Shown here piece after piece: positions 1,603 to 25,097 of a DNA stretch of 44,105 nt. Position 1 is the first letter of the stretch; each line of letters starts with the position of its first letter. The translations under genes and the position numbers were made by a program. Under the pieces are notes generated by a model, which saw nothing but the letters and a program-made list of their open reading frames with translations, ran no database searches and had not been told where the DNA came from. This stretch comes from Candidatus Omnitrophota bacterium (lineage in GTDB: Bacteria; Omnitrophota; Gorgyraeia; Zapsychrales; Fredricksoniimonadaceae): assembly GCA_015233375.1 (NCBI GenBank), contig JADFXW010000002.1, positions 1-44,105 on the forward strand, in the 5' to 3' direction.

Positions 1603-1608
1603 CATGAG

Positions 1609-1617
1609 ATTATAACA
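1609..1617 (-). promoter_or_regulatory. Extended -10 promoter element (TGTTATAAT) for the riboswitch and receptor transcript
   Basis: The minus strand reads TGTTATAAT (a perfect TATAAT with upstream TG) a few nt before the riboswitch 5' end. It overlaps the stop codon of 1610..2107. No convincing -35 element. Confidence 0.45.
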
Positions 1618-3269: not shown

Positions 3270-3981
3270 AATGAATTTCGTTTAGAAAATCCGAAAATAA
3301 AATAATTTGCCAGCCCTTTGTATCTCTTAAGGACACAATATAATCAAAAAATTTGACTAATTCCTGACGCCGTTTTTCTGTTGAAAAATGTTTATGATGC
3401 AGCACAATCCCTGTAAAAGGCTTTTGTTGGGCATTTTTTACCAACATACGGACAACATCCATGGCCTTATAGAAAGTCATCTTACCCTGTTTATAAGAAC
3501 TAAACGAAACCTCTGCGGGCAGATTCATCAATTTATAATCGCCGCTAAACCTTCTGGATTTAGCTGAAAAAACCTTAAAACCTTGTTCCTCCACAAGCTT
3601 TAGCGTGTTTTTATCATACCCATGATACGGCGGAACAAAAGCTGGTGTAAAATGATCGCCAAAATCTGCCCTCATCTTTTTAAGGCCTTGGGCCATGTCT
3701 TGGCGTTGAACACTAAGAAGACGCCCTTTGCCAAACTCATATTTCATGTCTTTTGAAACAGAATGATTCGCATGAAGCCAGCCATGCTGGACAATATCCA
3801 GTAATTGCGGCATTTGTTCCTTGGCCTTATTAAGAAATTTAACAAGAGACCTATCCATTTTTCCTGGGATGACGGCATGGATAACTGGGACGTGACGATA
3901 TTGGGCTAAATTAAACAAAAACTTGAATTCTTTATCCAAGGTCCATACATCATCATTACGAATAAAAAGGCGTGCAGTCAT
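3259..3981 (-). CDS. Putative polysaccharide deacetylase-like protein (DUF2334/CE4-like)
   Basis: FIRNDDVW near the N-terminus and VQHGWLHANH resemble the metal-binding Asp and His motifs of deacetylase-fold proteins. The assignment is tentative. Confidence 0.5.
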   Translation of the reverse strand: MTARLFIRNDDVWTLDKEFKFLFNLAQYRHVPVIHAVIPGKMDRSLVKFLNKAKEQMPQLLDIVQHGWLHANHSVSKDMKYEFGKGRLLSVQRQDMAQGLKKMRADFGDHFTPAFVPPYHGYDKNTLKLVEEQGFKVFSAKSRRFSGDYKLMNLPAEVSFSSYKQGKMTFYKAMDVVRMLVKNAQQKPFTGIVLHHKHFSTEKRRQELVKFFDYIVSLRDTKGWQIILFSDFLNEIHYDH

Positions 3982-4009
3982 GATATTATTAAGTATACTA
4001 CTTTTTACT

Positions 4010-5200
4010 ATGCGTATCTTGTTCCATTATACCCATAAACAAACACTCGGCCATACAACACGTACCCATGCCCTTGTCAAGAGCCTTTGCCGCCACAAGG
4101 CCCAGGTCCTTCTTCTTCAAGGCGGGCTGCCTCAGCCTTTTGTCCGTTTTCCAAAAGAGTGTAAAATTTTAGACATCCCTGAACCTTTTGACGACCGCCG
4201 AAGCTTTCAATGGCACCAGCCCCCCGTTTCAGCAGTGAAACGTGCCCAATTTATTCTTAAAACAGCCGCTGATTTTTGCCCGGATGTTTTTATAACAGAA
4301 TTTTTCCCTTTTGGCCGCATGCCCTATATCCCGGAACTATTACCTGTGCTGCGCTTTCTTCGCAAAAAAAATACACGCATCATCGCAAGTATCGGCTATC
4401 CCTTAATCATTGACCTTAAACGTCTTTCAAATACAAAATTCGCTGCTTTGCACCAAGCCTTATTTGCCTTTTATGAAACCTTTTTAATTCATACGCCTGG
4501 CGATCTCGAGACCACCTATATTCAAAACAGCATTCAATCCCCTATTCTTGCTCAATCATACGCTCTTTTCATGAAAAAATTAAAAAAGAAAATCATCTAT
4601 ACTGGTTATGTTTTTCCTGAAAAAATGATGACCAAAGGCACCAAAATTTCCATTAAAAACAAAAAGAATCCCACGATTATCATCAGCCGCGGCGGCGGAT
4701 CGGTTTATCCAAAACTTATCACTAAGGCTATCGAAGCCCAACGCCTTCTTGATAATAATTGCAAGACCATTATCGCCTGTGGTCCTGCCACAACACCAAA
4801 AGAAATGGCTCTTTTCAAAGCCTGCCTTAAACAAAAAGACAGGCCCCGAGTTGTTTTAACTGATCATATTAATAATCTAGACGATGTGCTTAAGACCTGC
4901 AGCGTTTCAGTCAGTCTCTGCGGTTATAATACCTCTGTGCAATTAATGCGTTTTGGCACACCGTCTGTCATTGTCCCCTATAAAAACAACTTGTCTAGCG
5001 CCTCAACCAACGACCAAATCGCCCGTTCTAAGCTTCTGGTGGAACATTTCTCAAGCATCTGCCTTGACCACCAAAACCTCACAGCAAAATCCCTTGCGCT
5101 TGCTATCAAAGAACAACTAAGATCCCCAAGGCCACAACCCGCGCCTGAAAAATGGTTTAACGGCGCTGAAGCGTGTACGCGTTACGTTATGGGAAGATAA
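4010..5200 (+). CDS. GT28/MurG-like glycosyltransferase (COG4671-type)
   Basis: The ORF track runs from 3923. I prefer the ATG at 4010 (MRILFHYTHKQTLGHTTRTHAL), which matches the usual N-terminal strand and G-H loop of this family. The C-terminus has SRGGGS, LCGYNT and NDQ..R, typical of the GT28 C-domain. The 3' end overlaps the convergent gene 5182..6186 by 19 nt. Confidence 0.7.
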   Translation: MRILFHYTHKQTLGHTTRTHALVKSLCRHKAQVLLLQGGLPQPFVRFPKECKILDIPEPFDDRRSFQWHQPPVSAVKRAQFILKTAADFCPDVFITEFFPFGRMPYIPELLPVLRFLRKKNTRIIASIGYPLIIDLKRLSNTKFAALHQALFAFYETFLIHTPGDLETTYIQNSIQSPILAQSYALFMKKLKKKIIYTGYVFPEKMMTKGTKISIKNKKNPTIIISRGGGSVYPKLITKAIEAQRLLDNNCKTIIACGPATTPKEMALFKACLKQKDRPRVVLTDHINNLDDVLKTCSVSVSLCGYNTSVQLMRFGTPSVIVPYKNNLSSASTNDQIARSKLLVEHFSSICLDHQNLTAKSLALAIKEQLRSPRPQPAPEKWFNGAEACTRYVMGR

Positions 5201-6186
5201 GATAAATTGAAATCTTTCAAAAAACCATGATACGCCAAGCAGCCTGGACAATGGCCTTTGCGGGCTTTTTCGGCATAGGCCTCTCTCTTTAAATCCAACT
5301 TTTTGGGCAACTGACCACTTAAAGAAACCTTCCCTGCAGAGGGCCAGTACAGGCATGGATACACCTCTCGATAAGCATTAATAAACAAGGACTTTTCTGG
5401 CGTCAAGCATTGATGGATACAAGATTTGCTTTTTGACAACAAAACCAATAAAGCTTTAAGCATAGGGACATCGACCCCCTTGGAGCCTTCCTTTAATATC
5501 TTTGTTATCTGTTCATTGACTTCTTGTATCATCATGGGTGTGAGCATGGCCAAACTTTTTGCTTGCGGCATATCCTGTCGATGATAATAAGCAGATACGC
5601 CAGATTCCATGATTTTAGGCGAAAAACGCGCGTTCAAACGTTTCGCTAACTCATAAACATACCCGATCTCTTTAAAATTGACCCTGTTGACAGTAAACTT
5701 CAATTCCAAAATAATCTGATGCCCAAAATTTTTTGATAACCATTCCATTGTTTTTAAGGTCTTCTGAAACGCCCCTTTCCCTCGAATCCTGTCATGGATA
5801 TGAGGGGAACCATCAAGGCTTATCCCAACGTGGAGCCCAGATAAATCTTGTTCACAGGTGGAAAAAACCTTTCGGATGGACTCAAAAAAGGCGGCATTGG
5901 TATACACACCAAATCCTGTAATCTTTCCCTGTCTATATAAAACCGACAGGAGCTCCAAAATTCGGCCGCAATTCTTATTTAAAAAAGGCTCGCCACCTGT
6001 TATAGAAACAAAATTAAGCGTGTATCTCTCAAGAAAGGCTTGCATCAGACGAGCTACAAAGGAAGCTGTCATCTCATGAAGTGTCTTCTCAGTCCATATC
6101 CCGCAATGCCCACAACGCAACTGACAACGATTGGTGATTTCAATAGTAATGTCATTAAGCAAGGGTTTGATTATGTTTTTTCCCAT
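5182..6186 (-). CDS. Radical SAM protein with SPASM/twitch-like C-terminus
   Basis: TNRCQLRCGHCGIW carries the CX3CX2C motif. The C-terminus has CIHQC..YPC..GHCPGC. Confidence 0.85.
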   Translation of the reverse strand: MGKNIIKPLLNDITIEITNRCQLRCGHCGIWTEKTLHEMTASFVARLMQAFLERYTLNFVSITGGEPFLNKNCGRILELLSVLYRQGKITGFGVYTNAAFFESIRKVFSTCEQDLSGLHVGISLDGSPHIHDRIRGKGAFQKTLKTMEWLSKNFGHQIILELKFTVNRVNFKEIGYVYELAKRLNARFSPKIMESGVSAYYHRQDMPQAKSLAMLTPMMIQEVNEQITKILKEGSKGVDVPMLKALLVLLSKSKSCIHQCLTPEKSLFINAYREVYPCLYWPSAGKVSLSGQLPKKLDLKREAYAEKARKGHCPGCLAYHGFLKDFNLSYLPIT

Positions 6187-7712
6187 GCGTCAATTTCTCC
6201 ATCTGATACCTTAACTAAATTTCTTAAGGGAATGATTTTCTTGATATCCTCCATTGTAGATTGCCCTGGTATCTGATACATCAAAGAACAATACACCACA
6301 ACCCCTCTTAAGTCTGACAAATCTTTTTTCATCCTATTCATTTCTTTAAGATACGAAGAATTTGGCTTGAAAGACAACGGGTCCATTTTAAATGGAAAAG
6401 GGATTGCTTTAAGAGATAACCTGCTATAAAGCGCCATCACATTATTGGAATAAATCAACTTGGTCTTAGAAATTTTCTGGGCTTCCTTAATAATAGCTGA
6501 TTGGCTCCAAACCTTCCCATCATAAAAAAGCCCCTCATGATACCTGTTCATGCCCCATTGAAAAGCCCCAGGGACATTAATAGCAATCAAATATATCAAC
6601 AAACAAAACACAAAACAAAATTTCAAGAAATTCTGCTCTCTTACCACCGAGAATAAAATATGGACGGATCCTAAGCAAAACAACAAGCCAAAAACTTCTA
6701 TAGGAAAAAAATACCTGGTACTTTGGGCCAAGCCATCCATCCATCCAACAACAAAACCCCAAGATAATAAATAAAGACAAGAAAAAATAAATAAAACCCC
6801 TAGAAACCATATCTTTATCTCTGGGATGCCTTGAACCCTCGCGGCATCCCTATTTTTAAAAATACCCCATCCTGCGACCATCATGCCTGCTATTAATAAA
6901 ACCACGCTTGATATTGAAACTGCGAGGTGATTGGTCAGTAAGGCACAACCCTTAATGTCCGCAATTAAATAGGGATGAAAGGCGATGATGCGGTCTGTTA
7001 AATGGCCTGTGATAACCACATTGACCAGCATCCACGTCATCATGGGCAACAAAGCCGCGAAAGAAAATACCCCTGCGCGCTTGAGACCTATTGGCCAGCC
7101 TTCTCTGTTTTCTAATAACAAAATAATCCCCCCTGTTAAAACAAACGGGACACCTGCAAACCTTGTTAGACATGCTAAGGCCGCGGACATGGCAGAGGCC
7201 CAAAGAAATAAACTTCTTTTATTCTCAAGAAAATTCATCAAAAACACAAACCACAAAAGCCCTAAAAACATAAATAAAGGCTCAGACATGGCTTCTGAAT
7301 AGAAATACAAATTATCAATTTTTACCAACATCCATAAAAGAGCGGCCCAGGTCATCCAAAAGGCATTGGTGTATCTATAAATCAAAAAACCCACCAAGAA
7401 AATATTTATGCCAAAAAGCGTTGCATTCAACCATCTGGCTGCATCAACGGGACCCGGGCCGCCAAACCAATGGATAATAGCCAAAAAATAAGGAAACAGC
7501 GGCGGATAATGCTGCCAAACAAAGGTCCCCATGGTATAATCCCATCGACAAGAATCAAGGCCACTCAAACATTTGGCCATAAAGATATACATCACTTGAG
7601 GCTGCCCCACACCCCATTTCGAAGTCAGCAACATAATAAGGAAAAAGCCTGCTAAACTTAAAACAACAAGAAGAGCAAACCGTAGAAAATTTTTAAATAA
7701 AAAAGTATTCAT
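6171..7712 (-). CDS. GT-C-fold (ArnT/PMT-like) polytopic membrane glycosyltransferase, paralog of 11992..13563
   Basis: 513 aa with more than 10 hydrophobic segments and a soluble tail of about 100 aa. It aligns closely by eye with 11992..13563 (WQHYPPLFP, IHW.GGP, ARWLNA, LLYRYT, IDNLY.YS.AM.EPLF, CLTRFAG.P). Confidence 0.7.
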   Translation of the reverse strand: MNTFLFKNFLRFALLVVLSLAGFFLIMLLTSKWGVGQPQVMYIFMAKCLSGLDSCRWDYTMGTFVWQHYPPLFPYFLAIIHWFGGPGPVDAARWLNATLFGINIFLVGFLIYRYTNAFWMTWAALLWMLVKIDNLYFYSEAMSEPLFMFLGLLWFVFLMNFLENKRSLFLWASAMSAALACLTRFAGVPFVLTGGIILLLENREGWPIGLKRAGVFSFAALLPMMTWMLVNVVITGHLTDRIIAFHPYLIADIKGCALLTNHLAVSISSVVLLIAGMMVAGWGIFKNRDAARVQGIPEIKIWFLGVLFIFSCLYLLSWGFVVGWMDGLAQSTRYFFPIEVFGLLFCLGSVHILFSVVREQNFLKFCFVFCLLIYLIAINVPGAFQWGMNRYHEGLFYDGKVWSQSAIIKEAQKISKTKLIYSNNVMALYSRLSLKAIPFPFKMDPLSFKPNSSYLKEMNRMKKDLSDLRGVVVYCSLMYQIPGQSTMEDIKKIIPLRNLVKVSDGEIDAWEKT

Positions 7713-8821
7713 TAATGATGATTCCTAAAGAAAGCGCGACACGCGTCAATGACGAAACCTGCCTTCTCAACACTCATAAACGAAGGCAAGGGAAGATGTA
7801 GGGCTTGGGTAAAATATTTATCACTCACCTTAAATTGTTTTTTATTTAATCTCTTAAAAGCGGACATTTGGTGAAGGGGCACATAAGGCTTTTGAACCGT
7901 AATCCCTTTCTCTTTTAGAAACCATGACAATTTGTCTCTTTGAGAACAAAAAACCACAAAATTCTGCGCCACACTTTCTGTCAGAGGCTTATCTTTAAAA
8001 AAAGTCAACCCTTTAATGCCCTCAAGGCCTTGCTCATACAACGCCTTTATTTGATGACGGGATTGAATAATCTCAGGCAAATGCTTCCACTTGACCTCTA
8101 AGGCCATCAGATCCATAAAAGAAAGGGGCGCAAATCTCTGGCCCAGGCTTAAAAGATCCTCATCATCACGCCAATCCTCCTGCCAACGCCGGATTTGAGT
8201 ACCCTGTTGTTTATCACACACAACCATTCCCCCGCCACCCGCGCAAGATGAAAGAGGCTTATAATAAGAAAAAGAAAACACCGACATGTCCCCGAAACTT
8301 CCCAACATGCAGCCTTTATAACGCGAACTTTCTGCCTGGCAAACATCTTCAATAAAAACAATCCCCTTGCCCTTACATATTTTTTTGATAGCCTCCACAT
8401 CACAAGGCCGGCCAAACATATGAGCGCCAATCACTGCTTTTGTTTTTTTGGTTATAGCTAACCTTAGCAGCTGCGGGTCTATTTGGAGATCGTCAGCCCT
8501 GGCGTCAACAGGCACAGGCTTTGCCCCGCAATAAAAAACCGCTAAGGCAACCGCCTGATAGGTCAAATCAGGGACAATCACTTCATCCCCTTTTTTAACA
8601 CCAGCCAAAAGCAAGGCTATTTTCAAGGCGTCACTGCCCGAATTAACAGAAACCGCCTCTTTGACACCAATATACCTGGCAAAAGACCTTTCAAACTCAT
8701 AGGTCAGGGGTTTAATATCATTAAGACCACCTACCTTTTTTAGCGTTTTTTCCATCAAAGAGGCATACTCACGGGCAAGGGCCTTTTCTACCAAAATACT
8801 CTCGTATCTTATTTCTGACAT
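7712..8821 (-). CDS. DegT/DnrJ/EryC1/StrS-family PLP-dependent sugar aminotransferase
   Basis: SGSDALKIALLLAGVKKGDEVIVPDLTY, and FSFSYYKPLSS as the candidate PLP-lysine region. A strong SD (AAGGGGGAG) precedes the ATG. Confidence 0.85.
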   Translation of the reverse strand: MSEIRYESILVEKALAREYASLMEKTLKKVGGLNDIKPLTYEFERSFARYIGVKEAVSVNSGSDALKIALLLAGVKKGDEVIVPDLTYQAVALAVFYCGAKPVPVDARADDLQIDPQLLRLAITKKTKAVIGAHMFGRPCDVEAIKKICKGKGIVFIEDVCQAESSRYKGCMLGSFGDMSVFSFSYYKPLSSCAGGGGMVVCDKQQGTQIRRWQEDWRDDEDLLSLGQRFAPLSFMDLMALEVKWKHLPEIIQSRHQIKALYEQGLEGIKGLTFFKDKPLTESVAQNFVVFCSQRDKLSWFLKEKGITVQKPYVPLHQMSAFKRLNKKQFKVSDKYFTQALHLPLPSFMSVEKAGFVIDACRAFFRNHH

Positions 8822-8827
8822 TATTTC

Positions 8828-8876
8828 GAACTCCCCCTTGCCCCCCTCTTTAATCGCTTCGCAAAGAGGGGGAACT
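8828..8876 (-). repeat. Hairpin plus G-rich (SD-like) unit, copy 1 of 2
   Basis: The minus strand reads TTCCCCCTCTTT-gcgaagcgatt-AAAGAGGGGG-gc-AAGGGGGAGTTC. The same architecture occurs at 37905..37944 on the plus strand. Both copies lie immediately 3' of a stop codon in the direction of transcription. Confidence 0.7.
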
Positions 8877-8877
8877 A

Positions 8878-9888
8878 TTAATTGTAAAGAATCAGCATTT
8901 TTCTATCTATCTGCTCAATCTGTTCACATAACTCAATATAACTATTCACTCTTGACTTATAACACGAACCTGCTTTTGTTTCAACAGCCTTACGGGCGTT
9001 AAAATTGCTGACAGCCCTGTAACTGGATTGTGGATTTCTTGCAATAAAATTGCTTAAATCTGTAAAATATGATTTTGCCCCTTTTAAAAATTGCCCTGAA
9101 GGGCCTAAACCAAAATCCATCAAATAAAAGTCTTTTCGGACCTCTTCTGGAAACGATAATAATACCCAATTCCCAAGAACCTTGCCATTAGGTAAAGCTA
9201 ACATATCCCATATCCCTGTTGAAGGCTTGCTATATCCTCTTCCAATCAAGCCATATCTTTTTTCTTTTAACTCCCAAAGAGAAGACTCTCGATACAGGTC
9301 TAAGAATATTTTGGATGCTGATTTATCCCAATTTTCAAGGAAGGCAGGATGTACTTCAATAGACCTTAAACCAATGCTCGCCAAATATTTTAAATTTTCA
9401 AAAAGATTATCTACGGATTGGGGCCGAACTGTCATAGTCGCTGTCAATGGGCCTTTTGAGGACACCGCCAGATTAACCCCATGGACAATATCATCGAAAT
9501 CCCCGCCTTCAATGCCCGGCCTGTTTTTTATCGTGGTATCCTTTTTTCCATCAATCCCCACCTCAAGATTAATCCCGTTATCCAAAAAAAACTTCATCAA
9601 ATTATTATTTAATAAGGTCGCATTCGTTTGAACAGAAATATACCTGTCCAGCTTCTCATTCTTTATCCTTGTAATCATTTCACGAAGTAAATCAGCCTCT
9701 ATCAGAGGTTCCCCTCCTGAGAAAATAAATTCCAGAGGTGCTTGAGAACGAACAAATTCAAGGATATGTTTAAAAATACCGATATCCATGACTTCTTGGC
9801 GCGTACGGTGTTTGTAAAAACAATATCCGCAACCCAAATTGCAGCGGTCCGTGAAAAAAAGCCAGACGTGATTGATTTTATTGATCAT
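8878..9888 (-). CDS. Radical SAM protein, anSME-like N-terminus, no obvious SPASM cluster
   Basis: FTDRCNLGCGYCFYKH carries CX3CX2C in the CNLxCxYCF context typical of anSME/SPASM-family maturases, but the C-terminal half has few Cys. Tandem paralog of 9878..10915. Confidence 0.8.
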   Translation of the reverse strand: MINKINHVWLFFTDRCNLGCGYCFYKHRTRQEVMDIGIFKHILEFVRSQAPLEFIFSGGEPLIEADLLREMITRIKNEKLDRYISVQTNATLLNNNLMKFFLDNGINLEVGIDGKKDTTIKNRPGIEGGDFDDIVHGVNLAVSSKGPLTATMTVRPQSVDNLFENLKYLASIGLRSIEVHPAFLENWDKSASKIFLDLYRESSLWELKEKRYGLIGRGYSKPSTGIWDMLALPNGKVLGNWVLLSFPEEVRKDFYLMDFGLGPSGQFLKGAKSYFTDLSNFIARNPQSSYRAVSNFNARKAVETKAGSCYKSRVNSYIELCEQIEQIDRKMLILYN

Positions 9889-10915
9889 TTTTTATACAAA
9901 TCTTCACATGCGCACGTTGTAAAAATTTTAAAATATTATTGATGGCCCCGGCATTCAAATAAGCATAGCCCATCATTTTGTTGACCAACTTAAAATGATG
10001 CATCACAAATTCACGATAGGTCAAATAAGGACGGCCGTTATATAACCGCTTATACGCCTCCTGATAAAAAGACAATACTTCCTGTCGTATCTGGCCTGTT
10101 TTAATGTCCCAAATGCTAAACTCCTGGCGTTTATTTTCCGGTAAACATAAAAATGGATCTCCTGCCAACAGATGACCTGGTGGATGAAGGCTTAAATCCA
10201 TGTCTCCTGGACGTATCATTTCCTTGTCTTCTTGTGCATACATCAAAGAGCGTAAATCTTTATTTTTCAAGATAGCTAAATAATTCCGTTTAAAACATGC
10301 TTGGGCATCTTTGTCCCAAGTCATAAAAGCAGCAGGCGTCACATCCATATGAGGAAATCCTAAATCCTTCAAAAATGTTACCCCCTCCCTGATGCGCGAC
10401 GCTTCACGAGGATGCACCGTCATGGTCGTGCCACAGGCAAGATCCGCCTTCATACACTCTTTAATGTTATCAGTTAATCTGTTAAATGTGTCTGGCTTTA
10501 ATCCACGCCTATGCCTTGTCGTGACATCAAAATATCCGTCTATGCCAAATTCAAGGCTTACCTTAAGACTTTTAAGATATTTGATGTCCTTTTTATCAAT
10601 CAACACCCCATTGGTCTGAATATGTAAGGAGGTTTTCTTTAAAAAACGCTTGGCCTTTTCTAAAATTTGATACAGCAGGTCCTTGGCTAAAAATGGTTCT
10701 CCGCCGCTAAGAATTAAAGTGGAAGGTTCTGTTTGGTGATATTTAAATAATGAGAAAAACCTGTTAACAGCTTGGAGTGAAATGTCCTTCAAACCCTTGT
10801 GGCGAAAAAAACAATAATCACAGTGCAGATTGCAGCGCTCTGTCACATAAATCCAGGCATAATGGACTTTAATTCTATTGTTTTCTCGCGTCGATAAAAT
10901 ACCTGATTTTGCCAT
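9878..10915 (-). CDS. Radical SAM protein, anSME-like N-terminus, no obvious SPASM cluster
   Basis: VTERCNLHCDYCFFRH and GGEPFL. Its 5' end overlaps the upstream gene by 41 nt if the only in-frame ATG is used. Confidence 0.8.
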   Translation of the reverse strand: MAKSGILSTRENNRIKVHYAWIYVTERCNLHCDYCFFRHKGLKDISLQAVNRFFSLFKYHQTEPSTLILSGGEPFLAKDLLYQILEKAKRFLKKTSLHIQTNGVLIDKKDIKYLKSLKVSLEFGIDGYFDVTTRHRRGLKPDTFNRLTDNIKECMKADLACGTTMTVHPREASRIREGVTFLKDLGFPHMDVTPAAFMTWDKDAQACFKRNYLAILKNKDLRSLMYAQEDKEMIRPGDMDLSLHPPGHLLAGDPFLCLPENKRQEFSIWDIKTGQIRQEVLSFYQEAYKRLYNGRPYLTYREFVMHHFKLVNKMMGYAYLNAGAINNILKFLQRAHVKICIKNDQ

Positions 10916-16331: not shown

Positions 16332-17255
16332 TCATCCACGCCTTGACAGACGTGGAATTCTCGCTTTGTTAAAACTACGTAAAACCATATCAAGCGCTGG
16401 TGTCTTTACGCCTATCTTGTGCGCTTCCTTCACTATAGCTTGTGTTATATAATCAATTTCTGTCGGACGACAGGCTTTTATATCTTGAAATAATGTCCCT
16501 CGATGAAGGATCCCTTTGAGATCCCCATGACGGACCCTCATTATCAGCTTCATAGGATCAAAACCAAGCTTTATCCCTAACGCTCTGGCTGTAGCCTTTC
16601 CTTCTTTGACGGCATCCTGGACTAATTTCCAAATATTCTTGTCCTTGGCTAAAATATCATATCCTTGATTCGTGATAACCGGCAAAGGGTTCATCACTGA
16701 GCTAAAAATAAGTTTTGCCCATACCACGCGGTCAGCCGCCCGGAAGACCTTACAGGGCATTTGGCATTGTTTAAAAATTCTTCCCACCATGGGGGCCCCA
16801 TCACCCCCAAGATACATCTGCCCTTGATAAAAAACATCCACTTCACCTGGGGCTTTTTCTTGGCACGCCATCGTGGTGGTGCCTCGGCAAATCAGCGCTT
16901 TTTTAAACAATTTTCCTGCCCAAGAGATATCAAACAAACCATTTTGAAGGAACAAAACACATCCAGGATTAAGAAATGCCACATCCTGAAGAGCTTTTCT
17001 AAAATCCATTATTTTGGTTGCTATAATCAGGACATCAACATCCAACCCTTGTAATTGGCTGATAGACTCAACAGAGTAGATTTGTGCCTTTCTTGACTGT
17101 CCCTTTTCTTTTAAAATGATCCTATTATTCTTAAGCGCTTTTCTTATAAAAAGGTTCTTGTCAAACACAGTCACATGCACCCTTCTAGACAAAAGAGCAG
17201 CCAAACTTTTTCCCAACGCCCCTTGACCAATCACAATAATCCTAAACATCCTCAT
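16332..17255 (-). CDS. 2-dehydropantoate 2-reductase (PanE/ApbA)-family NAD(P)-dependent oxidoreductase
   Basis: N-terminal Rossmann motif IIVIGQGALGKSLAALL. The C-terminal CRPTEIDYITQAIVKEAHKIGVKTP is typical of the ApbA C-domain. The last 13 codons lie inside repeat-module sequence. Confidence 0.75.
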   Translation of the reverse strand: MRMFRIIVIGQGALGKSLAALLSRRVHVTVFDKNLFIRKALKNNRIILKEKGQSRKAQIYSVESISQLQGLDVDVLIIATKIMDFRKALQDVAFLNPGCVLFLQNGLFDISWAGKLFKKALICRGTTTMACQEKAPGEVDVFYQGQMYLGGDGAPMVGRIFKQCQMPCKVFRAADRVVWAKLIFSSVMNPLPVITNQGYDILAKDKNIWKLVQDAVKEGKATARALGIKLGFDPMKLIMRVRHGDLKGILHRGTLFQDIKACRPTEIDYITQAIVKEAHKIGVKTPALDMVLRSFNKARIPRLSRRG

Positions 17256-18411
17256 AATAAATCAACCCCTCATCCTCAAAAAAACTTTTCTTGGTAAACC
17301 GCCCTTGCTTTAAGCCCTGTTGATAAAACGCCGTACCAGGCAATATCACAAGCTTATTGGTCCTCACCGTCACTCCAGACCCCATCTTTTGAAGGACTGA
17401 TAAGGTCTTATCCCTGTCCTTTTTTGTCTCCCCAGGATTTCCGTTTGTCATCATCACCTCAACATGAAGCCTTGCCTCTTTAGCCCAACGCACGGCATTT
17501 AATATTTCTTCAGACCCATATTTCTTTCCCAATTTCTTTAAAACACGCACTGAAGCAGATTCCACCCCAAAAGAAACAGCCCTGCAATGAGAATGGGCCA
17601 TCAATAAAAGCAGTTTTCTGCTGACCGAATCCACACACAACGAACATTCCCAAATAAAGCTCCCATTAATTTTCCGTAACCCTTCGCAAAGCTCAACTAA
17701 ACGCTTCTTGTCCCAGGCCAAATCTTCATCAAGAAACCTAACCCTTTGAGCATGATGGATTTCAACTAATTCCTTAATCTCATCTAATACATGAACAATA
17801 CTTCTGGCCCTTACCCCTTGCCCCCAAAGCACATGACGGTCACAAAAAACACAGTGATGCCTGCATCCTCTTGACGTCATGATAGAGACCGGACGATGCC
17901 CTTGTTTGTATAAGCAGGTCCCGATGGGTGGGATATCATCTAAATCCTTAAAAACACGCCTTGAGGTCTCGACCATTGTGTTTTCTTTTAAATAACATAT
18001 ATTCGGCACCTTGGGGCATACGCCTTTATGAAGCAGCATAGGCAGCACAAATTCAGGATCAGATAAAACAACAACATCTGCTAATTGACGCAACAAAATC
18101 TCCTCTTTAAACACAGAGGCAAACGGACCAAAAACAATGATACAAGACGGAGGATTCTTCCTCTGACGCATCTTGTGCATATGAGCAAAGACATTGGACT
18201 TGTTTCCAAAAAAGAGGGCATAACAACAAACATCCGTTTTCAACTTCTTGGCATGGACGCGAGGCATCTCTTTCCTCGGTAAAAAATCCACCATCCTTGC
18301 ATCAAATCCATTTTTAAGAAGTGATAGAAAAACACCTGCGGCACTGTAACGCATAAGCCCTGAGCCGCCGCATTCTGGACGAGTGTTATCTAAAAGAATG
18401 ACCTCAATCAA
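17242..18411 (-). CDS. B12-binding-domain (class B) radical SAM protein
   Basis: TSRGCRHHCVFCDRH carries CX3CX2C after an N-terminal flavodoxin-like region of about 170 aa (IIVFGPFAS..), as in cobalamin-dependent radical SAM enzymes. Confidence 0.8.
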   Translation of the reverse strand: MIEVILLDNTRPECGGSGLMRYSAAGVFLSLLKNGFDARMVDFLPRKEMPRVHAKKLKTDVCCYALFFGNKSNVFAHMHKMRQRKNPPSCIIVFGPFASVFKEEILLRQLADVVVLSDPEFVLPMLLHKGVCPKVPNICYLKENTMVETSRRVFKDLDDIPPIGTCLYKQGHRPVSIMTSRGCRHHCVFCDRHVLWGQGVRARSIVHVLDEIKELVEIHHAQRVRFLDEDLAWDKKRLVELCEGLRKINGSFIWECSLCVDSVSRKLLLLMAHSHCRAVSFGVESASVRVLKKLGKKYGSEEILNAVRWAKEARLHVEVMMTNGNPGETKKDRDKTLSVLQKMGSGVTVRTNKLVILPGTAFYQQGLKQGRFTKKSFFEDEGLIYYEDV

Positions 18412-18415
18412 TGTC

Positions 18416-19840
18416 TTATGCCCCTACTCTATAGTAAAGTGTTGTTAACCAATTATTGGCGTAGGCTTCAAGCCAAGATTGGCGTTTACTGTAATCACAC
18501 CGAGGGTCATATTGGCTAATAAAACGCTTCCGAAGCCGCCGTAAAAAATCCGGCTTAAACAAAACCCTTGAAAGAACAACATATTCACGGACGCGTTCAA
18601 ATTCCCATGGACCAGTAAATTTCCATACACTTTTTGAACAAGCAATCAGGCCTTGTTTCTTTAAATATTCCAAACCTTCCTGACAATGGTCAAGTACGCC
18701 CATGCCAAAACGTTTCAAGAAACCTTGAGATTTAAGCCCCTCGGTTATCATCGCCATGGCCGCGAAATGAGACATCACGTAAGTCTTATCTTCTGGACAG
18801 GCGTCAACGCCTGAGAAATCAGACATGGAGTCAAGGCCACGTGTCCGATAAAAAATGGATCCTGGAAACTGCCCCATAACCAAGGGGCCAAAACCAACCA
18901 CTGCTGCTTCCATACGCGTATACAATTCTTCCTGATATTCTTCTCCTTCACTATCAAGGGCATAGCTGCCAAGCCCTTTGCGTTTAAAACCAGCTTTCTG
19001 AAGAATAGCTATTGCTGTTTTTATAATAGCGTCCCGTCTCTTAATAAAATCCAAAACCTCTTCTGATGGAGCACATAATGCTTTAAGATTTTTTCCGCAA
19101 TAAGGATAAACATGGACGATATTAACTCCTTCATCAAGAAGCATTTTAAGGTCTTTCTTAATCCCTTGGACCGTCTGATACGGCAAGCCAGCGATAAGAT
19201 CTGCATTCACATGAGGCACCCCAGCCTTCAGGGCAGAACGCACACACCAAAGCACTTGTTTTTTAGTCTGAAAGCGTGCCACTTGTTTGATAATCTTTTC
19301 ATCAAGAGACTGAACCCCAATACTCAAACGAAATAATCCTCGCTTCACCAACACATCCAGTTTAGCTTGACTTAAAGAAGAAGGATTTGCTTCAAAAAGA
19401 ATTTTACGCTCCCTTACAGGAAAATTCTTATCCAACGCATCTAAAACAGTATCTAACTGGCTTTCATCAAGAATGGATGGCGTCCCCCCTCCAAAACAAA
19501 GGGTGGACGTATCCATGCCTTTTAAAACAGGAGAAAAGAATTTCATCTGATTCTTTAAGGAAGTGATATAGGCATCAATGTCCAAAGGCTGTTTCAATAC
19601 ACGCCTTGCACAATAACAAAACGCGCATGAGTTCTCACAAAACGGGACATGGACATACAAATGGGCCTTGGCAATAGATTGGACAAAAACATCATTTTCT
19701 CGTGAATTGTTAATAGATCGAGCGACATCCTCCCACTTCGAAGAAGTTGCCAATACCCCAATCAGAGAATCTTCGCTTGTCAAAGGCTTGATCTCGTTTA
19801 AAAAAAATAAAAAATTGCGCAAGTCTTTATCGTTAGACAT
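18416..19840 (-). CDS. HemN-like (class C) radical SAM protein
   Basis: HVPFCENSCAFCYC and CFGGGTPSIL. The ORF track extends to 19891. I prefer the ATG at 19840 (MSNDKDLRNFLFFLNEI), which aligns with the paralog start MNHNSSDSEKKNFLFFLNKV and removes the 37-nt overlap. Confidence 0.8.
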   Translation of the reverse strand: MSNDKDLRNFLFFLNEIKPLTSEDSLIGVLATSSKWEDVARSINNSRENDVFVQSIAKAHLYVHVPFCENSCAFCYCARRVLKQPLDIDAYITSLKNQMKFFSPVLKGMDTSTLCFGGGTPSILDESQLDTVLDALDKNFPVRERKILFEANPSSLSQAKLDVLVKRGLFRLSIGVQSLDEKIIKQVARFQTKKQVLWCVRSALKAGVPHVNADLIAGLPYQTVQGIKKDLKMLLDEGVNIVHVYPYCGKNLKALCAPSEEVLDFIKRRDAIIKTAIAILQKAGFKRKGLGSYALDSEGEEYQEELYTRMEAAVVGFGPLVMGQFPGSIFYRTRGLDSMSDFSGVDACPEDKTYVMSHFAAMAMITEGLKSQGFLKRFGMGVLDHCQEGLEYLKKQGLIACSKSVWKFTGPWEFERVREYVVLSRVLFKPDFLRRLRKRFISQYDPRCDYSKRQSWLEAYANNWLTTLYYRVGA

Positions 19841-19854
19841 CTTTCTTAGCCTCT

Positions 19855-21288
19855 TTACACCCCCATTTGATAATACAATGCCATCAGCCAATGATTCGAA
19901 AAAGAATGAAGCAGGGTCTTCCCTTTCCTGTAATCCGTCCCTGGATTATATTGCTTAGCATAACGCTTTTGAAGCTTTAATAAAAAATCTTCACCATATA
20001 AAACCCGAGAAAGAGCGATATACTCCCGAAGGTGTTCTATCTCCCAAGAGGCTGAAAACTTCCACACTCCTTTGAAAGAGCCCACTAAACCTAAAGATTT
20101 AAGATAATTTAAGCCCCCTTTGCATGCCTGTTTCAAAGAAACCCCAAATCTATTTAAAAAAACTTTTTCATCAAGACCGTCCGTAATGATTGCCATTATC
20201 GCATAACGAGCCATCACGAAACTTAAATCTTGTGGACAAGCCTCAAGGCTGTTAAAACCATTATCTTGACCTGAAGGCTTGGTCCTGTAAAAGAGGGCGC
20301 CAGGAAATTGGCCTATAGAATACGCCCCAAAACCAAGCACCGCTGATTCAAGACGTGTATACGCTTCTTCCTGATGATCTTCTCCGGCTTGATTCAGGGC
20401 ATAAGCACCTAGCCCTTTGCGTTTAAACCCGGAAGCTTTCAAAACCTTTGCGGCTTCATGCATCATGTCTGAACGTCTTTTAAAGAAATCAACAAACGTC
20501 TCTTGAGGACCACACAATTCATTGACAGGTAAACTGCTAAAGGGATGAACATGAACAATGTTAGCCCCTTCTTGAACAACTTTCTTAATATCCTCCAGAA
20601 GCCCTTGGATGCTCTGGCCTGGTAACCCGGACATCAAATCCACATTCACATAAGGAACGCCCGCAGCTCTGGCTACATATAAAGATGATAAAACTTTTTG
20701 CCTGGTCTGTGAACGAGCCACCTGTTTTAAGACGCAAGCCTCTAGCGACTCAACCCCCATACTCAAACGATAAAGTCCCCTATCCAATAAAAGGTCCAGT
20801 TTTGACCTTGTCCAAGAAGAAGGGTGTGTCTCAAAAAAGATTTTACGCCTCTGGACAGGATATGCGGCATCAGCCGCATCAAGAAGGAAGGTTATTTGTT
20901 TTTCATCCAAGAGAGACGGGGTCCCTCCACCAAAACAGATGTGAGATGCATCCATTCCCTCACAAGCCTTGGATTGACGTTCCATCTGGCGTGCAACGGC
21001 GTGAATATAAAGATCCAAATCCCTCTTGCTTTTAAGTAATCCTCGGGCACAATGGCAAAACTTACACAATCTCTCGCAAAAAGGCACGTGCACATATAAT
21101 TGCAGCTTCTTAATGGATGAAACAAAAGAAGAGGTTCGTCTTGCCTTTTGAAGCAGACCTGCCAGGCTACTCCATCTGGCAGGCCGCGTCAAAGCGCCAA
21201 TCACAGGGTCCTCAATGCTGGGCGGATGAACCTTATTAAGGAAAAATAAGAAGTTCTTTTTTTCTGAGTCTGATGAATTGTGATTCAT
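19855..21288 (-). CDS. HemN-like (class C) radical SAM protein, paralog of 18416..19840
   Basis: HVPFCERLCKFCHC and CFGGGTPSLL. Colinear similarity with the downstream paralog along the whole length. Confidence 0.8.
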   Translation of the reverse strand: MNHNSSDSEKKNFLFFLNKVHPPSIEDPVIGALTRPARWSSLAGLLQKARRTSSFVSSIKKLQLYVHVPFCERLCKFCHCARGLLKSKRDLDLYIHAVARQMERQSKACEGMDASHICFGGGTPSLLDEKQITFLLDAADAAYPVQRRKIFFETHPSSWTRSKLDLLLDRGLYRLSMGVESLEACVLKQVARSQTRQKVLSSLYVARAAGVPYVNVDLMSGLPGQSIQGLLEDIKKVVQEGANIVHVHPFSSLPVNELCGPQETFVDFFKRRSDMMHEAAKVLKASGFKRKGLGAYALNQAGEDHQEEAYTRLESAVLGFGAYSIGQFPGALFYRTKPSGQDNGFNSLEACPQDLSFVMARYAIMAIITDGLDEKVFLNRFGVSLKQACKGGLNYLKSLGLVGSFKGVWKFSASWEIEHLREYIALSRVLYGEDFLLKLQKRYAKQYNPGTDYRKGKTLLHSFSNHWLMALYYQMGV

Positions 21289-22436
21289 TTTTGCCTTGAA
21301 AAACTCAAATAAAATTTCCCTTTAAGCAGTCCTTTCTTTTGATAAAGCATAAACAAATCTTTTTTCAGCAACGCCTGGTTACCCGGACACTTAGGGAATA
21401 TTTGCGAGGCTTCTGTTAATCGATTATCCTGATACTCGACGAAATCAACATTATCAAAAAACCTCGCTAAATGAAGACACTTCTTAAAATCTTCCATCGT
21501 TTCTGTCGGGAAATTAATAATAAAGTGAGACTCCAGGCGGATCTTGGAATTATAAGCTTTAATCTCTTTGATGGTCTTCATCATCAATGAAAGAGAATAG
21601 GAACGTTTCATCAGTTTCAGGATTCGACTCGATCCACTTTGCAATGGAGTCAATAAATACGTGATTCTTTTATCCAAAATATGTTTCTTTAAAAAAGGAT
21701 AATATTTTAAGAATAAAGACGGATAAAAATTAAATAACCCTATCTTAATCCTTTTATCAATCCTCAAGATTTCATCCACCAACTCCACAATATTGGCGCC
21801 ACTATCATGCCCCCAACAACCGCAATCATCCGCAATCAACATCACCTCAAAACTTTTTTCTTTAATAAATCTCTTAATATCTTCAAGGATGTCCTTTTGA
21901 CAGCGGCTTTGAAGGGCTCCTTTCGCAATTTTAATATTACAATACGAACATTTATTCAAACAACCTTGCGCTATCAACAAAGGCCTTAAAGCCTTTTTCC
22001 CTACATAAGAAACAGTACACATTGAAGCTGAAACATCCTCTATCCTGACCCTATAATCAAAATAATCCGAAAATTGATGAATAGACCCAGGAGGGATTAA
22101 AATATGCCCGCTTTTTCTGATATCTTCAGACACCTTGCATAAACACCCAAACACAATCACCTTCTTTGGAGCTTTTACGAATTGATTAATATAGTTGTTA
22201 TTGATTTTGGCAAAGGCATCCGTAATGCCACAGGTATTAAAAATAAGGATATCTGCATGACTCGGACGTTTTACAACCGTATAATCATTCAATTTCAAAA
22301 ACAATGCGATTTTCTGAAAAAGCAGTGAACTCGACGCACACGACATCAGTCCACTGGCAGATACAGCATCCAATAAACAGACCCTCTGTGAGGCATCAAA
22401 TTTTCTCACGGATACCACCTTTAAGCGATGAGTCAT
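21285..22436 (-). CDS. MiaB/RimO-like methylthiotransferase-family radical SAM protein (no evident TRAM domain)
   Basis: N-terminal UPF0004-like Cys positions (RVCLLD, FNTCGITD, FGCLCK). Radical SAM motif AQGCLNKCSYCNIK. Paralog of the C-terminal half of 22396..24897. Confidence 0.7.
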   Translation of the reverse strand: MTHRLKVVSVRKFDASQRVCLLDAVSASGLMSCASSSLLFQKIALFLKLNDYTVVKRPSHADILIFNTCGITDAFAKINNNYINQFVKAPKKVIVFGCLCKVSEDIRKSGHILIPPGSIHQFSDYFDYRVRIEDVSASMCTVSYVGKKALRPLLIAQGCLNKCSYCNIKIAKGALQSRCQKDILEDIKRFIKEKSFEVMLIADDCGCWGHDSGANIVELVDEILRIDKRIKIGLFNFYPSLFLKYYPFLKKHILDKRITYLLTPLQSGSSRILKLMKRSYSLSLMMKTIKEIKAYNSKIRLESHFIINFPTETMEDFKKCLHLARFFDNVDFVEYQDNRLTEASQIFPKCPGNQALLKKDLFMLYQKKGLLKGKFYLSFSRQK

Positions 22437-24897
22437 TCAATACAAATTCTCCCTTAACCAGCCCCTTTTTCTTTGCAAATTCAAATATCCTTTTTTTTGC
22501 CTCCAGCTCCTCCAAAGAACACTTGGGTCGTATGCGACACGCTGGTGTTTGGGCATTTTCTCCGTACTCAATAAAGTTAGCATAATCAAAATACTTTGCT
22601 AAACCCAAGCTCTTTTTAAAGTCACTAGCTGTTTCTGTTGGGAAGTTGACCATAAAATGCGTGTATAACTGAATACCTGGATTGAGGCGTTTTATTTCTT
22701 GGACCTTGTCCATCATGGACGAAAGATTATAGGCTCGATTCATCAGTTTAAGTATCCTGAAAGAGGCGCTTTGTAAAGGAAGCAGCAAATACGTAATCCT
22801 TTTTTTCGCAATATGCTTTTTGAGACTTGAGTAATATTTTAAAAACAGGCTTGGATACATATTATAAATTTTTATCGTAATCTTTTCATGAGCTTTGAGA
22901 ATATTATCAATCAGATCAACAATATTCAAACCATTCTCATGCCCCCAACTTCCGCAATCCTCGGCAATCAGAAATATCTCATAACTTTTATCCTTAATAA
23001 ACAACTTGACCTCATGAAGAATCTCTTCAAGAGCCCGGCTTTTGACATCCCCTTTGGCGATCTTAATATTGCAATATGAGCATTTGTTGACGCAACCTTG
23101 GGCAATGACCAGGGGTCTGGCAGAAGCAAACGCCTGCGACGAAGGTATTTCTTTAATGCTTATCGTGTTTTCAAAATAATCAGAAAACTTATCAATTTCT
23201 GTTGAACCAATTAATAAGCACCCGCTCTTTTGGACCTCTGGTGATATCTTGCCCAAACAACCAAAAATAATCATCGTCTTTTGGGCTTTGGCGTATCTTT
23301 TGATAAAATCAAGATTGGTTTGGGCCCAGGCATCTGTCAAGCCGCAGGTATTAAAAAGAACAATATCCGCCTCCGGTACAGATTCCACCAGTCTATAACC
23401 ATTTAGCTTAAAAAATAATTTAATCCGTTCAAAAAATACAGAGCTTGAAAAACAATACCTCTTGTCATTAGCATATAATATGTCTAATAAACAAATTTTC
23501 TGCTGACGGTTAAACTGGCCCTGAATCTTTTTGGGAGTCATCCGTAATGCGTGTGTTTTGTTTGTTTTATAATAGTCTGGATCTTTAATGATACGACAGT
23601 ATCCCTGGATACGTTTGGCAGGCATCGACTGAGTATAAATAGGAAAATCGGGGCCGTTGTCTTTAAGCCAATAAGCCTCATCAAACCCCTCTTTAATCGC
23701 TTGATAATAAAGCTTGCCGCCTGGCATGATTTGCAAAGGCCTGACATGAAGTTTTATTTCCGGACGTAATTGCTTACGGAAAGAATACGTTTGGGCGACT
23801 GTTGAAGCGTCTTCACCAGGGAATCCAATTATCAAATTAGCATCAGCCTCAATAGCACTTTCGATGGTCAAATTAAGGTTTTTAACAGCAATCTCTGGTG
23901 AAAAATTCCGGCCTATGGCAGGCAATAGATGGCGGCAAAAGGAATCGACCCCATAATAAATCCTGCGGCAGCCCGCAGCCCTCATCGCTTGAAGCACTTC
24001 TTTGTCCACCAGATCAACCCTTGTCGATGTGGTCCACTCCAAAAAAGGAGATTCTTTCCTTAAAATATCACAAAATTCAAAGACCCGCTTTTTGTTAATA
24101 GTAAAATTGGTATCACAAAAAAAGACCTGCCTTGGACCAAAGAATCTATAAAGTTTGTGAACATACTCCAAGGCCTGTTTCGGACTTCTTTGAATGACTC
24201 GGCGTTCATCCTGGGCCATGCGGCTACAAAATAGACATCTATAAACGCAACCCCTGGCTGTTTCAACAGGAAGAGCGGAGATCATCGTATCCTTTGATTT
24301 CCAGGCTGGCAGGCCATCAATAAAAAAATCCTTAAAATCAAAAACCAAATCCCTATTCAGATCATCCTCAAGCAGACGCTGTGGGTTTTGATAAATGCGG
24401 TTTTTCTTATCCCGCCAGGTCAAACCACGAACAGAACTCATGGGGCTTTGATGAATGATGTTATTGATAACTTCTAAAAATGCACCCTCTGCGTACCCTC
24501 TCATGATCATGTCCACATCAGGATAATGCTTCATGATCTGAGTATCAAGAAAGGTGGCATGAGGCCCACCTAACACAACCTTGATTCCTGGGCTAACCTT
24601 CTTAACAATTTGAGCCAGCTCAAAACAGGCAAACCGGCTTTGAGTAAAACAGGTGATCCCAACAATATCCGGAACATAGGTACGGATAATTTCTTCAATT
24701 TTCTCAAGGGTATGATCTGGTTGATAATAAATATGGACAGGGCTCTGATACTCTAACCGAATCGCATTAGCTAAGGCAAAAACACCCAGAGGAAACCACT
24801 CCTCACGGCCAGATGTGCCAAACAAATCCTCGCCACCCAAATGCGGGTAAGGAGGAGAAAAAAATAAAACACGTAAACCCTTGTTAGCCTTTGACAC
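22396..24897 (-). CDS. Fusion protein: B12-binding radical SAM domain (N) plus MiaB-like radical SAM domain (C)
   Basis: 833 aa. The N-terminal half has VVLGGPHATF and ETARGCVYRCLFCSRM. The C-terminal half has FNTCGLTDAW, FGCLGK and AQGCVNKCSYCNIK. GTG start at 24895-24897, preceded by TAAGGAG. Confidence 0.8.
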   Translation of the reverse strand: MSKANKGLRVLFFSPPYPHLGGEDLFGTSGREEWFPLGVFALANAIRLEYQSPVHIYYQPDHTLEKIEEIIRTYVPDIVGITCFTQSRFACFELAQIVKKVSPGIKVVLGGPHATFLDTQIMKHYPDVDMIMRGYAEGAFLEVINNIIHQSPMSSVRGLTWRDKKNRIYQNPQRLLEDDLNRDLVFDFKDFFIDGLPAWKSKDTMISALPVETARGCVYRCLFCSRMAQDERRVIQRSPKQALEYVHKLYRFFGPRQVFFCDTNFTINKKRVFEFCDILRKESPFLEWTTSTRVDLVDKEVLQAMRAAGCRRIYYGVDSFCRHLLPAIGRNFSPEIAVKNLNLTIESAIEADANLIIGFPGEDASTVAQTYSFRKQLRPEIKLHVRPLQIMPGGKLYYQAIKEGFDEAYWLKDNGPDFPIYTQSMPAKRIQGYCRIIKDPDYYKTNKTHALRMTPKKIQGQFNRQQKICLLDILYANDKRYCFSSSVFFERIKLFFKLNGYRLVESVPEADIVLFNTCGLTDAWAQTNLDFIKRYAKAQKTMIIFGCLGKISPEVQKSGCLLIGSTEIDKFSDYFENTISIKEIPSSQAFASARPLVIAQGCVNKCSYCNIKIAKGDVKSRALEEILHEVKLFIKDKSYEIFLIAEDCGSWGHENGLNIVDLIDNILKAHEKITIKIYNMYPSLFLKYYSSLKKHIAKKRITYLLLPLQSASFRILKLMNRAYNLSSMMDKVQEIKRLNPGIQLYTHFMVNFPTETASDFKKSLGLAKYFDYANFIEYGENAQTPACRIRPKCSLEELEAKKRIFEFAKKKGLVKGEFVLNDSSLKGGIREKI

Positions 24898-24920
24898 TTA
24901 TTGCTCCTTAACACGCGTTT

Positions 24921-24949
24921 GATATAAGGCTTGGAAATTTTTTTATCAA
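24921..24949 (-). promoter_or_regulatory. Candidate sigma70-type promoter for the radical-SAM operon
   Basis: The minus strand reads TTGATA, 17 nt, TATATC, about 25 nt upstream of the SD and GTG start. The -35 overlaps the foot of the 24947..25057 palindrome. Confidence 0.4.
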
Positions 24950-25083: not shown

Positions 25084-25097
25084 GAACACACTAGCTT

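Follow-up and report, generated by a model that had tools for sequence, protein, structure and literature searches.

A cobalamin-type radical-SAM module and a TRAM-less MiaB-like module share one reading frame in a radical-SAM-rich gene cluster of an Omnitrophota bacterium

To our knowledge, every methylthiotransferase (MTTase) characterised so far has a TRAM domain and modifies either tRNA or ribosomal protein S12. Class B radical S-adenosylmethionine (radical-SAM) enzymes, such as TokK, TsrM, OxsB, MgmA, CysS and BchE-like proteins, have an N-terminal B12-binding Rossmann-like domain followed by a CX3CX2C radical-SAM core. Two radical-SAM enzymes can also occur in a single chain, and a well-known natural fusion of this kind is FbiC (FO synthase), which joins CofG and CofH (PMC11917521). 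Here, we describe a fusion of a B12-type radical-SAM module with a MiaB-like module without TRAM, encoded on the minus strand at 22396..24897 of a 44,105-nucleotide stretch of a Candidatus Omnitrophota genome (assembly GCA_015233375.1, contig JADFXW010000002.1, positions 1 to 44,105; hereafter the window). We consider it most likely, with moderate confidence, that this fusion is a genuine bifunctional enzyme whose modules act in succession on one non-RNA substrate.

Two complete radical-SAM cores, an auxiliary-cluster domain and a B12-binding domain share one reading frame. In the list of open reading frames (ORFs), the fusion is 833 amino acids long and begins at a GTG codon. An AAGGAG motif lying 7 nt before it supports this start, as does the closest ortholog of the N-terminal half, P0002, whose alignment with the fusion begins at residue 1. 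NCBI annotates the same 833-residue product as intact (MBF0510754.1). Pfam places B12-binding, Radical_SAM, UPF0004 and Radical_SAM domains along the chain in that order, with the Radical_SAM match falling in two stretches (125 bits) and the cluster cysteines intact, bearing out the single polypeptide with two complete radical-SAM cores that a first-pass annotation of this DNA had proposed. The features of the fusion are as follows.

22396..24897, minus strand: fused ORF, a B12-type radical-SAM module followed by a TRAM-less MiaB-like radical-SAM module (Pfam, NCBIfam, NCBI MBF0510754.1, AlphaFold2 model, fold matches)
24469..24807, minus strand: B12-binding (Rossmann-like) domain, residues 31-143 (PF02310, 67 bits against a cutoff of 32, E = 1.7e-18)
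23779..24264, minus strand: first radical-SAM core, residues 212-373, with CX3CX2C at C217/C221/C224 (Pfam PF04055; motif cysteines)
23521..23562, minus strand: junction or tether, residues 446-459 (NKTHALRMTPKKIQ), where homologs of the N-half end and those of the C-half begin (predicted local distance difference test, pLDDT, <50)
23239..23430, minus strand: UPF0004 (MTTase N-terminal) domain, residues 490-553 (PF00919, 36 bits against a cutoff of 27)
22600..23112, minus strand: second radical-SAM core, approximately residues 596-766, with CX3CX2C at C602/C606/C609 (Pfam; alignment to residues 166-375 of MiaB 7mjz)

The auxiliary-cluster cysteines of the UPF0004 domain are C482 (RYCFSSS), C518 (NTCG) and C547 (FGCLGK), the last two lying in motifs that the first-pass annotation had quoted. 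Together with C602, C606 and C609 they make up six cluster cysteines that are invariant in the alignment of the C-half family (A3), as are C217, C221 and C224 in the alignment of the N-half family (A2). The two modules measure ~446 and ~381 amino acids, which corrects an earlier estimate of 455 and 365.

The B12-binding domain and the first CX3CX2C motif give the N-half the pattern originally read from its sequence, and the same arrangement as in the class B enzymes. A Foldseek search with an AlphaFold2 (AF2) model of the fusion found that the N-module resembles OxsB, TsrM, MgmA (methyl-coenzyme M reductase glutamine C-methyltransferase, QCMT), TokK, AprD4 and CysS, in agreement with sequence searches of the PDB. 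The B12-binding region of the model alternates strands and helices, in a fold like that of OxsB, TsrM, TokK and MgmA. No named subfamily claimed the module: the NCBIfam scores for BchE, HpnJ, ApyD, PhpK, QCMT and others were all far under their cutoffs, with the fusion scoring 145 for BchE (cutoff 481), 160 for ApyD (cutoff 750) and 123 for HpnJ (cutoff 578). By sequence, the N-module has a class B radical-SAM architecture that falls outside every named subfamily.

The two modules meet at an A-rich tract (tattataaaacaaacaaaacacac) followed by ATGA, with the codons tat tat aaa aca aac aaa aca cac gca tta cgg ATG Act. The in-frame ATG within the ATGA motif encodes M453 (23539-23541). The +1 frame is open upstream of the junction and stops at the TGA of ATGA, and one substitution in codon K444 (AAA) would give TAA; a single nucleotide change, evolutionary or technical, could therefore separate the fused from the split state. 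Stand-alone homologs of the N-half stop at the equivalent of residues 440-453 (P0002, 458 amino acids, 59% identity; P0156, 439 amino acids, 47%), and stand-alone homologs of the C-half start at about residues 459-468, indicating that the native proteins were joined almost end to end. In a MAFFT alignment, the start of the neighbouring MiaB-like paralog (MTHRLK) aligned with KTHALR, residues 447-452 of the fusion. The AlphaFold model that the first-pass annotation had suggested building contains two folded modules (mean pLDDT 71.5; predicted template modelling score, pTM, 0.48) separated by the low-confidence junction at 446-459, which suggests a short (~14-residue) flexible tether. Its input was an alignment of eight sequences (A6), shallow but in the correct register, a depth that limits the quality of the model; two deeper full-length alignments (A4 and A5) were unfit for modelling, as MAFFT superimposed the radical-SAM cores of the two groups of homologs. 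Repeat-mediated misassembly is an unlikely source of the junction, the two MiaB-like paralogs of the window being 64.5% identical in DNA without any long exact repeat.

Several observations weigh against a genuine bifunctional enzyme. The fusion is represented by a single protein on a single contig without an independent assembly, and both its closest N-half ortholog (59% identity) and its best C-half relatives are unfused. Since all its NCBIfam matches lie below their cutoffs, no function transfers to it. AprD4, a cobalamin-independent dehydratase, is among the closest solved relatives of the N-half in the PDB search, and by this analogy a B12-binding-like domain is no proof of cobalamin use. 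The AF2 model, within the limits set by its pTM and its eight-sequence alignment, has no confident interface between the modules, and the Foldseek matches include no solved chain spanning both. The alternative that survives best is an artefactual read-through, in which a one-base consensus error, or a minority variant in the metagenome-assembled genome (MAG), merges a B12-type radical-SAM gene (~445-452 amino acids) and a MiaB-like gene (~375-381 amino acids) that a stop codon or an ATGA-type overlap separates in the organism. The lack of a replicate would fit such an error, as would the end of P0002 at the equivalent of residue 453, the start positions of the stand-alone C-half homologs, the A-rich run before ATGA, where one substitution or one-base indel suffices, and the open +1 frame that ends at its TGA. 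Small overlaps are also common in this operon, one being of 4 nt and the others of 11-62 nt. On the other side, ORFs with short overlaps cover the 44-kb window and none of them is obviously broken or frameshifted, the junction lies outside repeated DNA, and the NCBI annotation treats the protein as intact. M453 has no Shine-Dalgarno-like motif before it, unlike the starts of the fusion itself and of the paralog, both of which have one, and equivalent fusions occur naturally in another lineage (P0171 and P0292, described below). Weighing these, we regard an artefact as unlikely, and we infer that the fusion is made as one chain. If it were a mere assembly error, the points drawn from gene linkage and from the family as a whole would stand, and the single-chain architecture in this organism would fall.

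The gene that follows the fusion encodes a second copy of its C-terminal module.

21285..22436, minus strand: free-standing TRAM-less MiaB-like paralog, 383 amino acids from the first ATG (Pfam UPF0004 + Radical_SAM; homology to the C-half)

NCBI starts this protein at V10, giving 374 amino acids. Its gene and the 3' end of the fusion share 41 nt, or 14 nt if the NCBI start is used. The C-half and the paralog are 52% identical over 372 amino acids (E = 3e-141), far beyond chance, which upholds the paralogy proposed in the first-pass annotation. A neighbour-joining tree pairs the two as sisters (53% identity) and places P0157, 49% identical to each, outside them, indicating that the duplication is lineage-specific and not an older split. 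The further proposal, that duplication was followed by fusion, held up in part: the tree supports a lineage-specific duplication linked to the fusion, and either event may have come first. All six cluster cysteines are kept in both copies, and the proportion of nonsynonymous differences between them (pN 0.295) compared with a saturated synonymous proportion (pS 0.752) indicates that both are under purifying selection.

The C-half and the paralog belong to a small, uncharacterised family of proteins of ~370-420 amino acids that consist of UPF0004 and radical-SAM domains without TRAM. Its closest relatives are single genes adjoining a ~411-residue B12-type radical-SAM gene (L005, L086). A second branch comprises tandem pairs, A and B, followed by a ~510-residue radical-SAM gene (L002, L003, L090, L094-L098) and sometimes by a B12-type radical-SAM gene after it. 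A more distant branch (~400-420 amino acids) lies in sugar clusters with DegT, GT4 and GT2 genes (L110, L113, L116, L117, L123, L128). B12-type radical-SAM genes adjoin relatives of the C-half at L004, L005, L086, L094, L097 and L114.

These tandem pairs bear on a second alternative, in which the ORF is real and the MiaB-like modules work chiefly as a hetero-oligomeric pair; fusion would then merely dock the B12-type module on the complex, and the modules would not need to share an atom or an intermediate sequentially. Pairs of ~370 and 390 amino acids followed by the ~510-residue radical-SAM gene recur at many metagenome loci (among them L002, L003, L090, L095, L097 and L098), their A and B positions form separate clades, and the window retains two copies, both under constraint. 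However, the pair in the window arose from its own recent duplication and not from the A/B split, and several relatives are single genes (L004, L005, L086, L087), making this alternative quite unlikely. That the pair in the window is itself the conserved A/B tandem cassette was ruled out by the position of the two copies as sisters in the tree.

We also noted some features of the loci that carry these relatives. The cassette at L002 (1-21004) and L003 consists of a gene for a 301-residue radical-SAM protein, one for a 288-residue protein, MiaB-like A, MiaB-like B and a gene for a 509-residue radical-SAM protein; DUF3467 genes and giant ORFs (one of 9,253 amino acids, others of >2,200) border it on either side. 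In L004 (873-9837), a MiaB-like relative lies beside several B12-type radical-SAM genes and a nitrogenase-like trio of two Oxidored_nitro genes and a NifH-like gene, and a NifH-like gene also lies 3' of the gene for P0292 in L140. Nitrogenase-like reductases may be recurrently linked to these radical-SAM clusters, or these may be plain bacteriochlorophyll-type clusters.

Like MiaB, RimO and MtaB, the C-half has a UPF0004 domain with three conserved cysteines and a central CX3CX2C radical-SAM core. Its PDB sequence matches include MiaB (7mjz, E = 3.7e-24) and RimO (4jc0, E = 1.7e-22), and Foldseek gave TM-scores of ~0.57-0.60, normalised to the target, for MiaB, MtaB and RimO, with identities to MiaB and RimO of only ~21-22%. 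Unlike those enzymes, which carry TRAM, the C-half is fused to a B12-type radical-SAM module and has none: Pfam found no match to TRAM (PF01938) in the fusion or the paralog, while the canonical relatives P0150, P0151 and P0153 carry it in the same search. The match to TIGR00089 ends at position 352 of 429 in that profile, and the last ~40 modelled residues (795-833) form a helix and a short strand, not a TRAM barrel. The TIGR00089 score was 194.9 (cutoff 251), and the NCBIfam scores of the C-half for the MtaB, RimO and MiaB equivalogs were 130-156 (cutoffs 315-357). The label 'MiaB-like' given in the first-pass annotation thus stands for the UPF0004 domain, the auxiliary cysteines and the CX3CX2C core, and fails for the TRAM domain and for the MiaB/RimO family model. 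Judged by sequence, the C-module is MTTase-like, yet it lacks the domain and falls below the curated cutoff that serve as two tests of MTTase membership. Two conserved motifs of the A3 alignment are absent from MiaB: DDCGS(Y/W)G, which contains C648 of the fusion, and, close to the C-terminus, P-K-C with C793. Their cysteines might supply additional metal or substrate ligands.

The alternative that at least one of the two copies, C-half or free paralog, is an ordinary MTTase for tRNA or ribosomal protein (of the MiaB, MtaB or RimO type) that lies in this cluster by chance is very improbable: the best NCBIfam, PDB and fold matches are indeed MiaB, RimO and MtaB, and all six cluster cysteines are conserved, but the absence of TRAM, the scores under the TIGR00089 and equivalog cutoffs, the low identity to MiaB and RimO, family-specific motifs such as DDCGSYG and PKC, and family contexts that are rich in radical-SAM or sugar genes instead of translation genes all stand against it. 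The substrate is probably neither RNA nor S12.

In the bifunctional-enzyme reading that we favour, a stand-alone B12-type radical-SAM gene would have been joined in frame to the first of two tandem MiaB-like genes without TRAM, by loss of a stop codon or of a very short spacer; the unfused state of the N-half is visible in a related locus (L001). Each module retains its own SAM-cleaving [4Fe-4S] site, and the C-module also retains the three-cysteine auxiliary-cluster site typical of MTTases. The two would act successively on one substrate, probably a sugar- or lipid-linked intermediate of the surrounding envelope-glycan locus, with the N-module carrying out a cobalamin-assisted radical alkylation, most likely a methylation, and the C-module a MiaB-type sulfur insertion or methylthiolation through its auxiliary cluster. 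The short flexible tether would set a 1:1 stoichiometry and hold the modules close, and the free paralog would perform the same chemistry at a second site or partner the fused copy. Our analysis establishes the domain content, the cofactor-ligand motifs, the paralogy, the recurring linkage of B12-type radical-SAM and MiaB-like genes, and the existence of independent fusions; the substrate, actual chemistry and cobalamin binding of the fusion are what we infer here. The substrate is probably a sugar or lipid and not tRNA; a non-RNA substrate is suggested by the absence of TRAM, the genomic contexts of the family and its repeated linkage to B12-type radical-SAM genes.

The gene cluster around the fusion is unusually rich in radical-SAM enzymes. 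Nine radical-SAM genes, encoding ten radical-SAM domains, lie on the minus strand between 2139 and 24897 (~23 kb), with CX3CX2C intact in all. The fusion is the first gene of this long minus-strand array and is followed by the MiaB-like paralog, two HemN-like radical-SAM genes, a 389-residue B12-related radical-SAM gene, a PanE-like reductase and an MBOAT (DltB-like) gene. Next come genes for an unknown protein, a PMT/ArnT-like protein, a PaaK-like ligase, two SPASM-type radical-SAM proteins and a DegT aminotransferase, and then those for another unknown protein, a radical-SAM protein, a DUF2334/deacetylase-like protein, a radical-SAM-SPASM protein and a DUF6580 protein. Further features of the array and its far end are listed here.

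19855..21288, minus strand: HemN-like (class C type) radical-SAM gene, copy a (Pfam/NCBIfam; its ortholog follows the N-half ortholog in L001)
18416..19891, minus strand: HemN-like radical-SAM gene, copy b (49% identical to copy a)
17242..18411, minus strand: 389-residue radical-SAM protein related to the B12 type, without a significant B12-domain match (ortholog conserved in L001)
9878-10915, minus strand: radical-SAM gene of the array
8878-9888, minus strand: radical-SAM gene of the array
7712-8821, minus strand: DegT aminotransferase gene of the array
5182-6186, minus strand: radical-SAM gene of the array
2139-3269, minus strand: radical-SAM gene of the array, SPASM type
within 2139..10915, minus strand: a DUF2334/deacetylase-like gene and a gene for a 513-residue protein without an assigned family, both of the array
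3923-5200, opposite (plus) strand: glycosyltransferase family 28-type (GT28) gene lying inside the 2139..10915 stretch
1505..1637, minus strand: borderline cobalamin riboswitch aptamer (RF00174; 32.3 bits against a gathering score of 31.5)
1..1356, minus strand: 5' portion of a BtuB-like TonB-dependent receptor gene that runs off the end of the window (Plug domain, E = 4.4e-15)

The array holds three pairs of radical-SAM paralogs: the two MiaB-like copies, the two HemN-like copies and two SPASM-type copies (28% identical). Divergent from it, from position 25098, runs a typical glycan operon with an AsnB-like gene, several glycosyltransferases, a deacetylase, a GNAT protein, a methyltransferase and an acyltransferase. 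The closest related cluster is L001, on the same contig as L006 and labelled as an uncultured Planctomycetales MAG, where orthologs of the SPASM radical-SAM gene, the N-half, HemN-like copy a and the 389-residue radical-SAM gene occur in that order, with no MiaB-like gene. This suggests that the lineage of the window gained a MiaB-like gene (or that of L001 lost one), that it was duplicated, and that the B12-type gene became fused with one of the two copies.

The receptor gene at the far end of this array starts ~150 nt downstream of the riboswitch. Among NCBIfam models, the receptor best matches the TonB-dependent vitamin B12 receptor, although truncation of the gene keeps the score under the cutoff. 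The riboswitch and the BtuB-like receptor lend circumstantial support to a local demand for cobalamin. An RNA family search upstream of the fusion (24700-25300) returned only a sub-threshold match to a plant miRNA, which we dismissed as noise, and a plasmid search with positions 1-1504 found nothing.

Some further sequence features were apparent within the window. A G/C-rich inverted repeat (CCCCCTCTTT...AAAGAGGGGGG) lies at 8822-8877, between the SPASM-type radical-SAM and DegT genes; it could form a hairpin within the operon and act as an attenuator, terminator or RNA-processing site. GC skew changes sign at ~24900-25100, the 200-bp divergent intergenic region between the fusion and the AsnB-like gene; cumulative GC skew has its minimum in the same region, and the skew tracks gene orientation. 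Unusually long overlaps are predicted between adjacent ORFs on the same strand, of 62 nt between 10875-12053 and 11992-13563 and of 41 nt between 9878-10915 and 10875-12053. The mechanical ORF caller may have misplaced the TTG starts of the PaaK-like and neighbouring genes.

Which enzyme methylthiolates small molecules such as coenzyme F430 has yet to be established (PMC10702137). The TRAM-less clade, repeatedly linked and at times fused to cobalamin-type radical-SAM enzymes in clusters of sugar or lipid type, is a concrete candidate for sulfur insertion into non-macromolecular substrates. A tentative and more far-reaching possibility is that the TRAM-less MiaB-like proteins are the first MTTase-type enzymes to act on a small-molecule, sugar or lipid substrate, and that the operon with its ten radical-SAM domains builds an undescribed, heavily C-alkylated and thio-functionalised envelope glycoconjugate or lipid. 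As part of that same tentative picture, B12-type, HemN-type and SPASM-type radical-SAM enzymes might cooperate, and independent fusions might mark an obligate two-step module for alkylation and thiolation. The natural fusions point to the partner enzyme to co-express, and ten radical-SAM domains in ~23 kb mark an uncharted pathway in Omnitrophota. The inference at the level of the family is more worth pursuing than the single chain itself.

The fusion architecture, judged from sequence searches, is rare but not unprecedented. When 1.84 billion cluster representatives were searched exhaustively, no close full-length ortholog of the fusion came up, and the best matches covered only the N-half (P0156) or only the C-half (P0157). 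In that library the fusion query is apparently itself represented by an unfused protein, and fusions can hide within clusters. Word-indexed searches of 5.8 billion clusters found no other protein with both PF02310 and PF00919 among the relatives of either half, and locus scans with A2 and A3 recovered no second copy of the junction, only the unfused relative in L001/L006. Our literature searches, with most subscription journals outside their scope, returned no description of TRAM-less MTTases or of fusions between B12-type radical-SAM enzymes and MTTases. The search of the cluster representatives also brought up many other fusions of radical-SAM modules, among them chains of two, three or four B12-radical-SAM modules, chains with two MiaB-like modules, and a MiaB-like module joined to a SPASM-type radical-SAM module.

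Two larger proteins come closest to the fusion. P0292 (1005 amino acids) has the same order of B12-binding, radical-SAM, UPF0004 and radical-SAM domains, and P0171 (1903 amino acids) has three B12-radical-SAM modules followed by one MiaB-like module. L141 encodes P0304 (1496 amino acids), orthologous to the three-module part; the next gene, overlapping by 8 nt, encodes a separate MiaB-like protein of 509 residues. The identities in collinear alignments with these two L141 genes are 49% and 48% for P0171 and 47% and 45% for P0292, and by these alignments L141 and P0171/P0292 form a clear split/fused (Rosetta-stone) pair. The MiaB-like modules of P0171 and P0292 fall in a separate clade, so their fusion was independent of the one in the window. 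The near-uniqueness that the first-pass annotation had suggested for this architecture does not survive the domain order shared by P0292 and P0171, the split pair at L141, the many multi-radical-SAM fusions and FbiC.

P0171 and P0292 resemble the fusion in their radical-SAM-rich cluster setting and their domain order, and the split form at L141 is adjacent and co-oriented. They differ from it in being only ~25-26% identical and in having a longer C-terminal extension, and P0171 also in its three B12-radical-SAM modules. FbiC, like the fusion, has two complete radical-SAM domains in one chain that act on one pathway, and its pair is split elsewhere (PMC11917521); unlike the fusion, it has neither a B12 domain nor a UPF0004 domain, and there is no sequence relationship between the two. 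No CofG, CofH or FbiC model was among the best 25 of the 35 NCBIfam families matched by the fusion, which indicates that the likeness to FbiC is an analogy only. The closest whole-protein analogues of the fusion are the uncharacterised P0171 and P0292, and its closest conceptual analogue is FbiC.

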